Made by a program: the position numbers and the translations under genes. Of a stretch of DNA of 64,000 bases, positions 32,222 through 36,524 are shown piece after piece. Below the pieces are notes generated by a model. The model was not told the origin of the DNA. It saw nothing but the letters and a program-made list of their open reading frames with translations, and ran no database searches. Numbering within the stretch: the stretch's first letter is position 1; each line of letters starts with the position of its first letter. This stretch comes from Escherichia coli (GTDB lineage: Bacteria; Pseudomonadota; Gammaproteobacteria; Enterobacterales; Enterobacteriaceae), in assembly GCF_041886205.1 (NCBI RefSeq), contig NZ_CP169029.1. The stretch is one strand, 5' to 3'.

Positions 32222-32647
32222 TTATTTCAACCGCTTACCCGCTTCATCAACCACTTTCTCGCCATCTTCCTTGGAGAATGCGCCTTTTTGCGCATCTGGC
32301 AGAATTTCCAGCACCACTTCTGAAGGGCGGCACAGGCGAGTTCCCAGCGGCGTCACCACAATCGGGCGATTAATCAGAATCGGGTGCTGAAGCATAAAGT
32401 CGATTAACCGATCGTCAGTAAATTTATCTTCTGCAAGGCCCAGTTCCTCATACGGCTCGACGTTTTTACGCAACAGCGCGCGTACGGAAATCCCCATATC
32501 GGCAATGAGTTTGACCAGCTCATCGCGCGTTGGCGGTGTTTCCAGATAATAGATAATGGTCGGTTCTGTACCGCTGTTGCGGATCATCTCCAGCGTATTA
32601 CGCGACGTACCGCAGGCCGGGTTGTGATAAATGGTAATGTTGCTCAT
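32222..32647 (-). CDS. arsC: Arsenate reductase ArsC (glutaredoxin-coupled), 141 aa
   Basis: ORF translation matches ArsC. Confidence 0.93.
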   Translation of the reverse strand: MSNITIYHNPACGTSRNTLEMIRNSGTEPTIIYYLETPPTRDELVKLIADMGISVRALLRKNVEPYEELGLAEDKFTDDRLIDFMLQHPILINRPIVVTPLGTRLCRPSEVVLEILPDAQKGAFSKEDGEKVVDEAGKRLK

Positions 32648-32659
32648 ATCAATATCTCA

Positions 32660-33949
32660 TTACAAAGTGAAAGAGAGACGTAGCGCCAGCGCAGCCAGCG
32701 TCACAAAAAGCACCGGCAGGGTCATGATAATCCCTGTACGGAAGTAATATCCCCAGCTGATAGTCATATTCTTCTGCGAAAGTACGTGCAGCCAGAGTAG
32801 CGTAGCCAGGCTACCAATTGGGGTAATTTTCGGTCCCAAATCGCAGCCAATCACGTTGGCATAAACCATCGCTTCTTTGATAACGCCAGATGCCGTGCTG
32901 CCATCAATGGACAACGCGCCAACCAGTACCGTCGGCATATTGTTCATAATAGAAGAGAGGAAGGCGGTGAGGAATCCGGTGCCGAGCGTCGCGGCCCACA
33001 GGCCGTTTTCCGCCAGCACGTTGAGTACGCCAGAAAGATATTCCGTTAGTCCGGCATTGCGCAGGCCATAAACCACCAGATACATGCCGAGCGAGAAGAT
33101 GACAATCTGCCAGGGCGCACCGCGCAGGACTTTACCCGTATTAATTGCATGACCGCGTTTAGCGACGGCAAATAATATCAGCGCGCCCACTGCCGCAATG
33201 GCGCTTACCGGAATGCCGAGCGGTTCCAGGACGAAAAATCCCACCAGCAGAAACAGTAAAACAACCCAGCCAGTTTTGAAGGTGGCAGGATCTTTAATCG
33301 CTTCTGCGGGCGATTTCAGCAGCGCCATATCGTAGTTCTGCGGAATATCTTTGCGGAAATAGAGATGCAACATCACCAGCGTGGCAACAATTGCGGCGAT
33401 ATCCACCGGCACCATCACCGATGCGTATTCGCGAAAGCCGAGGCCAAAGAAATCTGCGGAAACGATATTCACCAGGTTGGAGACAATAAGCGGCAGGCTG
33501 GCGGTATCGGCAATGAATCCGGCCGCCATCACGAACGCCAGCGTAGTGCCTTTACTGAACCCTAAAGCCAGCAGCATGGCGATGACAATTGGCGTTAAAA
33601 TCAGCGCCGCGCCATCATTGGCAAACAGAGCTGCAACGGCAGCACCGAGCAGGACAATCCAGGTAAACAGCAAGCGACCGCGTCCATTGCCCCAGCGTGA
33701 GACGTGCAGCGCCGCCCATTCAAAAAAGCCGGACTCATCCAGCAGCAGGCTGATGATAATGACGGCAATAAACGCCGCCGTCGCGTTCCAGACGATATTC
33801 CACACCACCGGAATATCACCCGGATGAACCACGCCCGTAACCAACGCCAGTACCGCGCCGAGCGTTGCACTCCAGCCGATGCCTAAACCTTTCGGCTGCC
33901 AGATAACCAATACGATGGTCAGGACAAAAATAGCGCCTGCCAGTAACAT
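32660..33949 (-). CDS. arsB: Arsenite efflux membrane protein ArsB, 429 aa
   Basis: ORF translation matches ArsB. Confidence 0.93.
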
Positions 33950-33991
33950 ACACCCTCCTGACAGGGCGACATGGTCGCCCTGTATAAAAAA

Positions 33992-35743
33992 TTAACTTGC
34001 CAGCTTTCTGAGTTTTTCGATGCCCGTAGGTTCTTGTGCGAATAGAGGGACCAGCGCTACACGCTTAGCATGTCGGGCCATCACCGCCTCAATTTGTGGT
34101 CGTTCCTGCGTTGCTCGCTGACACAGTAGCGACGAACGTGTATCCGCAATAGAAAGGCAGTTATTGATTATCCAGCCCCAGGGATGAATCCCTGCGCGTT
34201 CAAGATCGGCCTGCAAATTAGCCGCTTCCAGTACGGGCGTGGTTTCAGGCAGCGTAACCAGCAGCACTTTGGTGCGTTGCGGATCCTGAAGTAGCATCAT
34301 TGGCGTAGTAAAGTGACCTTTTTCGCCCATTTTTTTCGCAATTTCACGGTGATAAGCCCCGGTGGCATCCAGCAATAACAGCGTGTGACCGGTTGGCGCG
34401 GTATCCATCACCACAAAACGTTTACCCGCCTCACGGATCACGCGCGAGAACGCCTGAAATACAGCAATCTCTTCGGTGCAAGGAGAGCGTAAATCCTCTT
34501 CCAGCAGTCGTTTCCCCGCTTCATCGAGATCTTTTCCCTTTGTCTCAAGGACATGCTGGCGATAGCGCTCGGTCTCTTCCTGCGGATTGATCCTGCTGAC
34601 CTGTAGGTTGGTAAGTGTGCCGTTTAGGGTAGTGTTAATGTGGGCAGCAGGATCGGAGGTTGTAAGATGCACATCGAATCCCATATCTGCCAGGCTGACG
34701 GCGATAGCTGCGGCCATTGTGGTTTTCCCCACGCCGCCTTTTCCCATCAGCATGATCAGACCGTGTTCACTGCGGGCAATATCATTCACTAGCTCAGAGA
34801 ATGACATGTTTTCAAAGAATTGCTGGCGCATCTGGTCAGAGAGCGGTGCAGGCTCGAAACGGGTATTAAAAAGACCTTTTAATGCAGGCACGCCAACCAT
34901 GTTCACCGGTTGAAGAAAGAGGGTATCTGCTGGAATGGTCGATAAACCGGCGGGTAAATTTACCAGGGCTTCCTGCTCACGCTGAACTATTGCCATTGCT
35001 AGTGGGTCATTTTGCTGCCCGGACTCAGGCAATACGCCGTTGATCACCAGATAATGATTTTTAAGACCAATCGCTGCCAGTTCTTCATGAGTGCGAGCGA
35101 CTTCCTGCAATGTTGATTTTTGCAGGCGTGCAACCAGCACCAGGCGGGTACGCTCAGGATCGGATAATGCTTCTACCGCATCAGCGTACTGCTCACGCTG
35201 TTTTTCCAGCCCAGCCATCGGGCCAAGACAGGAGGCACCATCGGGATTACTTTCAATAAAACTGCTCCAGGCACCGGGGAGCTGCAGAAGTCGTATGGTA
35301 TGGCCCGTTGGCGCGGTATCAAAAATGATGTGATCAAAGCGGGCCAGCAGAGAGGCATCGGTCAGTAAACCGGTGAACTCATCGAACGCCGCGATCTCCG
35401 TCGTACATGCTCCCGAAAGTTGTTCGCGTATACTATTTACAACCTCCTCAGGGAGAAGTCCTTTGATAGGGTCAACGATTCTGGCCCGATACTGTTCAGC
35501 GGCTTGCTGAGGATCAATTTCCAGCGCGGACAAACCGGGAACCGCTGTCACAGGAGTAATAGCGTTACCAATAGTTTGATTAAATACCTGACCGACATTC
35601 GACGCGGGGTCGGTGCTGACAAGCAGAACCCGTTTTCCCTGTTCCGCCAGATGGATAGCAGTTGCGCAGGAAATTGACGTTTTACCTACACCTCCCTTAC
35701 CGGTAAAAAACAGATAAGGCGGGATATTCTGTAAGAATTTCAT
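33992..35743 (-). CDS. arsA: Arsenite pump ATPase ArsA, 583 aa
   Basis: Two P-loops (GKGGVGKT in each half) typical of ArsA; start at MKFLQNIPP. Confidence 0.9.
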   Translation of the reverse strand: MKFLQNIPPYLFFTGKGGVGKTSISCATAIHLAEQGKRVLLVSTDPASNVGQVFNQTIGNAITPVTAVPGLSALEIDPQQAAEQYRARIVDPIKGLLPEEVVNSIREQLSGACTTEIAAFDEFTGLLTDASLLARFDHIIFDTAPTGHTIRLLQLPGAWSSFIESNPDGASCLGPMAGLEKQREQYADAVEALSDPERTRLVLVARLQKSTLQEVARTHEELAAIGLKNHYLVINGVLPESGQQNDPLAMAIVQREQEALVNLPAGLSTIPADTLFLQPVNMVGVPALKGLFNTRFEPAPLSDQMRQQFFENMSFSELVNDIARSEHGLIMLMGKGGVGKTTMAAAIAVSLADMGFDVHLTTSDPAAHINTTLNGTLTNLQVSRINPQEETERYRQHVLETKGKDLDEAGKRLLEEDLRSPCTEEIAVFQAFSRVIREAGKRFVVMDTAPTGHTLLLLDATGAYHREIAKKMGEKGHFTTPMMLLQDPQRTKVLLVTLPETTPVLEAANLQADLERAGIHPWGWIINNCLSIADTRSSLLCQRATQERPQIEAVMARHAKRVALVPLFAQEPTGIEKLRKLAS

Positions 35744-35760
35744 ATGTCCCCCTGACCGGC

Positions 35761-36123
35761 TCAACAACAGTCGGTTTTTCCGCCACAGCAGTGTGTTGGT
35801 GCCAGTCCCACCTTCTCCAGCGGGATCCCAAACCAGCGGGCTAGCTCGGCGCGTTTCGGATAACGGCCCGCCATCACGGTTTCGCCTCCCAGTAAGATCA
35901 AGGGCAATCCTTCCGCCCCGGAAGCCTCAAGAAACGCTTTCGCTTTTTCGTTTTGCACGAAACTCATCGGTTGCTGCGCGAGATTGTAACGTTCGACCTG
36001 AACACCGCGGCTTTTCAGCCATTGCACATCTGCGGAAAAATCGACCAGCACCTGATCAACATCAGAACCACAGACGCCGGTACTGCAACACATCGCCGGA
36101 TCAAACACCGTTAACGTCTTCAT
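35761..36123 (-). CDS. arsD: Arsenic metallochaperone ArsD, 120 aa
   Basis: MCCSTGVCG N-terminal motif and C-terminal CCGG...CC, close to plasmid R773 ArsD. Confidence 0.9.
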   Translation of the reverse strand: MKTLTVFDPAMCCSTGVCGSDVDQVLVDFSADVQWLKSRGVQVERYNLAQQPMSFVQNEKAKAFLEASGAEGLPLILLGGETVMAGRYPKRAELARWFGIPLEKVGLAPTHCCGGKTDCC

Positions 36124-36170
36124 CTTCGATACCTCACATTCGGAAAATCATATATATCAAGTCAAATTTT

Positions 36171-36524
36171 TTAACTGCAACTTGCTTTACCGTCAGCAGA
36201 GCAGTTGGCTGCGGCCAGCTTACGGGCGATAGCCTGCACGTCGTCCAGTTGGCTTAATCTTGTTTGCTCAATAATTTTCGCCGCCCATGCTGGAATATGC
36301 GGCGATAAGCGGTAATGAACCCACTTACCCTGCTTGCGATCCAGCAATAGCCCACTTTCACGCAGCAATGCCAGGTGGCGGGAGATCTTGGGCTGCGACT
36401 GGTCGAGAGCAGTACAGAGATCGCAGACACATAACTCTCCCAGCTCGCTGAGCAGTAAAACGATGCCCAGACGGGTCTCATCAGCAAGAATTTTGAACAG
36501 TTGGATGGGTAAGAGAAATGACAT
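36171..36524 (-). CDS. arsR: Arsenite-responsive repressor ArsR, 117 aa
   Basis: ELCVCDLC metal-binding site in an ArsR/SmtB fold. Confidence 0.93.
   Translation of the reverse strand: MSFLLPIQLFKILADETRLGIVLLLSELGELCVCDLCTALDQSQPKISRHLALLRESGLLLDRKQGKWVHYRLSPHIPAWAAKIIEQTRLSQLDDVQAIARKLAAANCSADGKASCS

Follow-up and report, generated by a model that had tools for sequence, protein, structure and literature searches.

Three described systems bear most closely on the operon considered here. The Escherichia coli K-12 chromosome carries the three-gene arsenic resistance operon arsRBC, while plasmid R773 is the reference for the five-gene form, arsRDABC, in which the metallochaperone ArsD and the twin-half ATPase ArsA are also encoded. 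The five-gene arrangement has been reported on the chromosome of E. coli as well, in the sequence type 69 (ST69) complex and in ST1836, phylogroup D (Sütterlin et al. 2018, PMC5923176). Furthermore, the chromosome of strain FAM21845 carries arsRBC and arsRDABC together (PMC5514686), and arsRDABC is mentioned in further literature in strains of E. coli that make Shiga toxin (STEC). In the 64,000-nucleotide stretch of DNA analyzed here (the window; contig NZ_CP169029.1 of assembly GCF_041886205.1), an arsRDABC operon occupies positions 32222-36524 on the minus strand. The window is E. coli chromosome, with 99.99% identity to strain wlxctx60 over 28 kb. The operon is very probably an intact, native arsRDABC that represents a low-frequency allele of the ars locus known from E. 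coli only, with a ~2.35-kb block containing arsD and arsA for which loss and then re-acquisition is the most likely history. As the chromosomal five-gene arrangement in E. coli is already known, the mosaic, re-acquisition structure of the allele is the only modestly new element.

A mosaic five-gene operon at the native ars locus

The open reading frame (ORF) map places arsR, arsD, arsA, arsB, and arsC, all intact and co-directional, at exactly the coordinates given in the initial annotation, with the boundaries at the arsC stop codon and the arsR start codon and with spacers of 47, 17, 42, and 12 nt in gene order. Families were assigned using NCBIfam profiles with curated cut-offs. All five Ars proteins pass as full-length matches, and chance is therefore not an issue for these assignments. 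The genes and the block that distinguishes the allele are as follows:

36171..36524, minus strand: arsR, 117 amino acids (aa), As(III)-responsive repressor (NCBIfam PRK10141, 219 bits, cut-off 97)
35761..36123, minus strand: arsD, 120 aa, As(III) metallochaperone (NCBIfam ArsD equivalog NF033727, 132 bits, cut-off 90)
33992..35743, minus strand: arsA, 583 aa, arsenite-stimulated ATPase with two nucleotide-binding halves (TIGR04291, 933 bits, cut-off 650)
32660..33949, minus strand: arsB, 429 aa, arsenite/antimonite efflux membrane protein (PRK15445, 729 bits, cut-off 457)
32222..32647, minus strand: arsC, 141 aa, glutaredoxin-dependent arsenate reductase (NF007456, 306 bits, cut-off 242)
33930..36257, no strand assigned: mosaic block of ~2.35 kb from the informative-site scan, comprising the last ~30 arsR codons, arsD, arsA, the arsA-arsB spacer, and the start of arsB

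A longer, TTG-start ORF for arsA extends to 35767. Strain wlxctx60 carries an identical copy of the operon, in which RefSeq annotates the same five genes.

The operon occupies the native ars locus of E. coli, flanked by gor/dinQ/agrAB and by slp, and K-12 is collinear on both sides. The flank on the arsR side contains two AgrB-family small RNAs (sRNAs), dinQ, gor, rlmJ, and prlC, and the flank on the arsC side contains an ArsR-family regulator, an ArsP_1-family permease, a low-GC ORF of 407 aa, and slp. The collinear alignment bears out the statement in the initial annotation that K-12 has the three-gene arsRBC at this site, where it shares the promoter and operator of the window. The sole structural difference inside the operon is the absence of arsD and arsA from K-12, in which 9 bp stand in place of positions 33959-36134 of the window (2,176 bp). 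Both arsB and arsC share 97.2% nucleotide identity with K-12 (99.3% protein identity for ArsB), and the protein encoded by arsR codons 1-85 is identical in the two, whereas the 3' end of arsR is 36-38% divergent. Outside the operon, K-12 lacks the regulator/permease pair and has an IS5 in the neighboring ORF. The operon therefore has the position, promoter, arsB, and arsC of the native locus, but departs from the majority three-gene arrangement in possessing arsD and arsA.

The mosaic structure was resolved using informative sites at which three Escherichia three-gene sequences agree with one another and differ from the majority of 21 five-gene operons. At these sites, the window is of the Escherichia type from the start of arsR to 36275, of the five-gene type from 36257 to 33929, and again of the Escherichia type from 33911 through arsC, which places the junctions between 36275 and 36257 (in arsR) and between 33929 and 33911 (in arsB). 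Codons 1 to ~84 of arsR are of the native E. coli type, while the last ~30 codons lie in the presumably imported block of five-gene type. The two parts of this gene differ accordingly in their identity to K-12, E. fergusonii, and Escherichia sp. E2562 (94-96% over the 5' 255 nt versus 62-64% over the 3' 99 nt). Excepting its first ~7-13 codons, arsB is the native E. coli allele, and arsC is the native allele as well. The GC content of the block is 52%, and the GC content at third codon positions (GC3) of arsA is 0.50, compared to 0.62-0.65 in arsB and the core neighbors. The composition and codon-usage check across arsD-arsA proposed in the initial annotation thus returns a mild signal only (arsA GC3 of 0.50 versus ~0.63 in core neighbors), one that is supportive of a foreign origin and not decisive.

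The same locus, gene order, block, five-gene-type arsR 3' end, and regulator/permease pair are found in strain 118UI, which belongs to ST69, phylogroup D (PMC8900328), and the arsDA segment of this strain is 98.8% identical to that of the window (ArsD 100%, ArsA 98.3%). The backbones of the two differ, as the window has no chu heme-uptake cluster beside dctR and the flanking core genes are considerably more diverged than the operon. Between the window and either 118UI or strain 1190, the synonymous divergence (dS) is 0.024-0.028 in arsA, 0-0.012 in arsD, and 0.036-0.040 in arsB, compared to 0.10-0.19 in gor, rlmJ, prlC, and dtpB. Likewise, the mismatch density is ~1.2% from arsC to arsD and ~3.4% in the flank. 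The low dS and mismatch density of the operon relative to its flanks indicate that the allele moved between E. coli lineages by homologous recombination.

A separate observation concerns strain ET201, which over the aligned region (~29.7-41.2 kb) is near-identical to the window apart from an IS621 and 27 substitutions within positions 32750-33500 of arsB. This 750-bp patch looks like a small recombination event, which would show active recombination at the locus.

Comparison with R773 and plasmid-borne operons

The functional residues described for the R773 proteins are retained in the window. ArsD shares 88.1% identity with R773 ArsD (PDB 3mwh) over 109 aa and keeps Cys12, Cys13, and Cys18. 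ArsA aligns end to end with R773 ArsA (PDB 1f48) at 84.9% identity over 582 aa, and residue-by-residue comparison with 1f48 demonstrates that both GKGGVGKT P-loops, both DTAPTGHT motifs, and Cys113, Cys172, and Cys422 are kept. In the translations, ArsR contains the CVCDLC motif (Cys32/34/37), and ArsC contains Cys12, Arg60, Arg94, and Arg107. The gene order, the twin-half ArsA, the ArsD cysteines, the presence of ArsB and ArsC, and the ArsR site with its operator are all those of an R773-type arsRDABC. Taken with the ORF map, the NCBIfam matches, and the alignments to 1f48 and 3mwh, this substantiates the five-gene assignment, with an ArsD chaperone and a twin-P-loop ArsA, made in the initial annotation.

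By homology to the R773 and K-12 systems, the operon is expected to function via the textbook mechanism. ArsR would bind a TCAT-N7-TTTG operator that overlaps the -35 element, and would be released once As(III) or Sb(III) binds to Cys32, Cys34, and Cys37. A single transcript would then provide ArsD, ArsA, ArsB, and ArsC. ArsC is predicted to reduce arsenate using glutathione and glutaredoxin, while Cys12, Cys13, and Cys18 of ArsD would pass As(III) to the ArsA site formed by Cys113, Cys172, and Cys422. Finally, ArsA would dock onto ArsB, changing a proton-coupled antiporter into an ATP-driven pump.

The architecture, spacer layout, arsA-arsB hairpin, and functional residues of the window are shared by R773 and by five-gene operons from both plasmids and chromosomes of Klebsiella, Citrobacter, and Enterobacter, as is the presumed ArsD-to-ArsA-to-ArsB mechanism. 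In sequence, R773-type and other five-gene operons are considerably more distant, with ~79-82% nucleotide identity to the window and with ArsA identities of 84.9% to R773 and 85-88% to other species. Consequently, the association with R773 drawn in the initial annotation holds for architecture, but does not extend to sequence, given that true plasmid operons reach at most 81.7% nucleotide identity, that R773 ArsA and ArsD have identities of 84.9% and 88.1%, and that mobile-element flanks are lacking.

A donor was sought among 72,556 plasmids, 100,044 species-representative genomes, and 5.8 billion proteins. The best true plasmid match to the operon has 81.7% nucleotide identity; a lone "plasmid" match at 98.6% proved to be a 4.9-Mb chromosome filed as a plasmid. 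Among the species representatives, the nearest ArsA match has 88% identity (Prodigiosinella, Citrobacter, Enterobacter, Hafnia), and the ArsA type of the window occurs in no other Escherichia species represented there. In the protein search, identities to ArsA drop from 96-100%, where the named members are all E. coli, to at most 86%, with none between. A single 98% match outside E. coli, the 2.7-kb contig JAIJJM010000447.1 from a metagenome-assembled genome labeled "Collinsella sp.", is plainly E. coli DNA and was set aside. This contig encodes ArsR, ArsD, ArsA, and ArsB with 98-100% protein identity to the E. coli chromosomal type, and its presence in a Collinsella bin is almost certainly due to binning contamination.

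These results make it highly improbable that the operon was gained recently, as an accessory trait, from a plasmid of the R773/R46 type or from a metal-resistance island. Such a gain would account for the gene order, which is the same as that of R773, and sources are at hand, since plasmid-type arsRDABC is present in E. coli at 43 plasmid places and in chromosomal copies (~78-82% identity) and FAM21845 has both arsRBC and arsRDABC on its chromosome (PMC5514686). The best of the 72,556 plasmids is nevertheless no closer than 81.7%, and R773 ArsA no closer than 84.9%. Furthermore, no transposase, integrase, or repeat borders the block and no mobility genes flank the operon at this locus, while the arsR 5' part, arsB, arsC, and promoter are native alleles. 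The ~1% nucleotide difference among the three sampled alleles also argues against a recent clonal import. Unlike the plasmid types, the operon is not on a mobile element, and it has the arsR 5' part, arsB, and arsC of the Escherichia chromosomal lineage; neither close plasmid identity nor mobility flanks or a non-native site was found. Judged from sequence, the operon resembles R773 in architecture only and is not plasmid-derived.

Distribution, origin, and selection of the arsDA block

The distribution of arsDA was surveyed in 5,426 complete E. coli genomes, 258 of which contain some form of these genes. The type present in the window (at least 95% identity) occurs in 187 genomes (3.4%) and is always chromosomal and single-copy, while the other 76 arsDA records are plasmid-type copies with ~78-82% identity. 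The five-gene-type 3' end of arsR is found in exactly 187 genomes as well, once in each and always on the chromosome, and this equal count indicates complete linkage to arsDA. Most other genomes cover 46% of the operon query (arsRBC) or 11% (arsC only). The flanking backbone of the window is matched at 99% or more in nine genomes, and all others reach at most 97.8%. In seven of these nine, arsRDABC was seen directly at this site, and the counts fit all nine. Consequently, arsRDABC is standard in the lineage of the window and rare in the species. The initial annotation had regarded the five-gene form as an accessory gain, to be abandoned if this arrangement turned out to be the standard one at the locus in the same lineage. 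The idea of a gain is consistent with the minority status of the allele in the species (187/5,426) and with outgroups that carry arsRBC, but within its own lineage (at least 7/9) the five-gene form is the standard arrangement. The literature covered makes no mention of this lineage, whose sister strain XJ5.2 is ST5044, as a carrier of arsRDABC.

Comparison with other Escherichia species suggests how a five-gene allele came to be rare at this locus. At the corresponding gor/dinQ locus, both E. fergusonii and Escherichia sp. E2562 (cryptic clade) have arsR, arsB, and arsC and then the regulator/permease pair, with a K-12-type arsR 3' end and arsR-arsB spacer. In the three-gene operons, this spacer retains ~40 nt of the arsR-arsD spacer seen in every five-gene relative, fused to the arsB ribosome-binding site. 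The presence of this remnant indicates that the three-gene operon of Escherichia descends, through an old deletion, from a five-gene operon.

The rate at which the arsR 3' end evolves also differs between the two operon types. In the three-gene Escherichia operons, the last ~30 codons evolve ~3x faster than the first 85 (87-90% versus 95-96% identity between species), while in five-gene operons the same segment (positions 36171-36270 in the window) evolves more slowly than arsB. It seems that loss of arsD downstream relaxed the constraint on the 3' end of arsR.

In the favored account, the Escherichia ancestor would have lost arsDA from a five-gene operon, leaving arsRBC as the standard form in E. 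coli, E. fergusonii, and the cryptic clade. Homologous recombination would later have restored arsDA in a minority of E. coli, with crossovers in the conserved central part of arsR and near the beginning of arsB. The donor of the block may have been a related, unsampled five-gene operon, and the restored allele would since have moved between E. coli lineages via recombination. A more exact form of this account, in which a single ancient loss of arsDA preceded the split of E. coli and E. fergusonii, the repair was a precise replacement of 2.35 kb, and the allele spread among unrelated lineages by recombination alone without a mobile element, is offered tentatively, its chances being somewhat short of even.

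The alternative to re-acquisition is retention, in which an undeleted ancestral five-gene allele persisted at low frequency while recombination homogenized the arsR 5' part, arsB, and arsC between the alleles. This is possible but unlikely. It draws on the same finding that the three-gene form clearly arose from a five-gene operon by deletion, and on the fact that this ArsA type is known from no host other than E. coli. Several further observations fit retention or weigh against re-acquisition. The block is as far from the five-gene family as the native backbone is, with an arsA/arsB distance ratio of 1.22 compared to 1.24 for pairs within the family, although this relative-rate test does not discriminate retention from introgression. 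The block also shares the terminal TGCAGTTAA of arsR, composed of Escherichia-specific bases, with the three-gene type. Low diversity in a 3% allele class is expected under retention too, such that re-acquisition is not cleanly separable from it. Moreover, the outgroup comparison consists of two genomes (E. fergusonii and Escherichia sp. E2562), and no donor was found among the plasmids, species representatives, and proteins searched, where no ArsA lies from 86-88% up to 96% identity. What tells against retention is the deletion allele itself, which has an identical junction in E. coli, E. fergusonii, and E2562. Re-acquisition is favored because retention requires both alleles to have persisted through the speciation of E. 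fergusonii and of the cryptic clade, that is, through at least two speciations. In addition, this ArsA is present in no other Escherichia species representative, and all copies coalesce recently (dS 0.02-0.04) relative to the flanks.

Whichever route brought arsDA to this locus, the genes could be effectively neutral or silent here, with resistance at the arsRBC level and an allele that drifts. The arsenite minimum inhibitory concentration (MIC) of arsRDABC clinical isolates was not significantly different from that of arsRBC isolates (PMC5923176), so any advantage of ATP-driven pumping may be barely measurable in standard tests. Both this result and the low allele frequency (3.4%) would be expected under neutrality. 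This possibility is doubtful, however, as at least three lineages have retained all five ORFs and every catalytic residue, and the nonsynonymous divergence (dN) in arsA and arsD is far below dS (0.007 versus 0.026), indicating purifying selection. Lin et al. in 2006 and Dey and Rosen in 1995 are said to have found the advantage of the R773 ArsD and ArsA proteins mainly at low, environmental As(III), which is outside the reach of MIC tests.

These findings carry little weight for arsenic biology, as the proteins, the mechanism, and the chromosomal five-gene form have already been described. They do imply that arsA or arsD in an E. coli genome is not to be read as a plasmid marker. A polymerase chain reaction (PCR) scheme in which arsD or arsA is "plasmid-specific" has been published (PMC9731454); such schemes would probably fail to detect the chromosomal type, whose identity to the plasmid genes is only ~80%, or would misread it where it did amplify. 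More generally, the ars locus is an example of a resistance function that is polymorphic within a core operon and movable by homologous recombination. If loss followed by repair is the true history, the allele would provide a clean case, from nature, of an accessory function spreading as an allele of a core locus.

Regulatory elements and neighboring genes

Two candidate regulatory elements are associated with the operon:

36549..36589, minus strand: ars promoter/operator, with the ArsR site TCATATATGTTTTTG at 36589-36575, a putative -35 element TTGACT at 36577-36572, and a putative -10 element GACACT at 36554-36549
33961..33983, minus strand: stem-loop ACAGGGCGAC-CAT-GTCGCCCTGT in the arsA-arsB spacer, directly upstream of the arsB ribosome-binding site

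The promoter region aligns with that of K-12, and neither the promoter nor the operator differs from the native E. coli type. The operator string TCATATATGTTTTTG has a single exact occurrence in the window. The TCAT-N7-TTTG consensus and the assignment of the -35 and -10 hexamers follow the K-12 and R773 ars promoters, and both are presumed to apply here. Scans for promoters and terminators over the operon gave counts no higher than in shuffled sequence. The arsR-arsD spacers of the five-gene family resemble the operator; a second ArsR operator in this spacer was considered and dropped, as the spacer of the window is not within 3 mismatches and the match count is at chance level.

The hairpin at 33961-33983 has a perfect 10-bp stem and a 3-nt loop. 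It is kept in 12 enterobacterial five-gene operons, for which the consensus fold has 10 pairs, 4 of them with compensatory change. Three-gene operons lack this hairpin, as it falls within the segment they have lost. Its position and conservation suggest a role in mRNA processing or stability, or in the control of arsB translation.

On the arsC side, the operon is adjoined by a divergent pair of genes:

31803..32099, plus strand: ArsR/SmtB-family regulator, 98 aa, divergent from the permease (NCBIfam HTH_metalloreg, 61.9 bits)
30695..31696, minus strand: ArsP_1-family permease, 333 aa with the RefSeq start (Pfam PF03773, 179 bits, cut-off 32.3)

The regulator lies outside the arsRDABC operon and contains a conserved C73 and a C-terminal C91-C92 pair. 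The permease possesses the invariant TPFCSCSTIP motif and a variable cysteine-rich loop. Its "arsP" name derives from the Pfam ArsP_1 family only. PF03773 is described only as "Predicted permease", the family also contains Cu/Zn exporters, and the 120 best relatives are all named "permease" or similarly generic. Among the NCBIfam functional models, the matches to the SO_0444 Cu/Zn exporter and to SaoE fall below cut-off, and PADLOC returned no match. A role for the pair in the handling of arsenic or organoarsenicals is plausible given its conserved adjacency to arsC. Since the pair also adjoins arsC in E. fergusonii and Escherichia sp. E2562, it represents an ancestral neighbor that was lost in K-12. 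The species survey found it in 2,224 of the 5,426 genomes (41%), with or without arsDA. The "composite seven-gene arsenic island" of the initial annotation was therefore an overstatement, as the pair is ancestral and independent of arsDA. An 83%-identical copy is found on a plasmid from E. coli, next to blaCTX-M-55 and IS26.

Beyond the permease, the 407-aa ORF (28893-30116, minus strand) has a GC content of 34% and no match in Pfam, NCBIfam, or PADLOC. It is unusually divergent between lineages, with an identity to ST69 strain 118UI of 87% in nucleotides and 79% in protein and a dN/dS of ~0.4. The K-12 homologue, which adjoins slp, has been split by IS5 and is a pseudogene.

The interval from arsR to gor contains, as it does in K-12, two AgrB copies (RF02891; 103 and 106 bits) at 36675-36758 and 36909-36992 on the minus strand, probably representing the agrA/agrB antisense sRNA pair, and the dinQ toxin gene at 37267-37350 on the plus strand. 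The spacer between arsC and the regulator contains a short unannotated repeat (~32136-32221) that matches at two or more sites in most E. coli genomes. An IS621 (IS110 family) interrupts this spacer in the sister strains ET201, XJ5.2, and LHM10-1; the spacer of the window has no insertion. Finally, a Tn7-like element encoding a TnsA-like endonuclease, a transposase, and an ATP-binding protein is located downstream of yhiN in sister strains 6EVA and LHM10-1, at the place where the window has yhiM.

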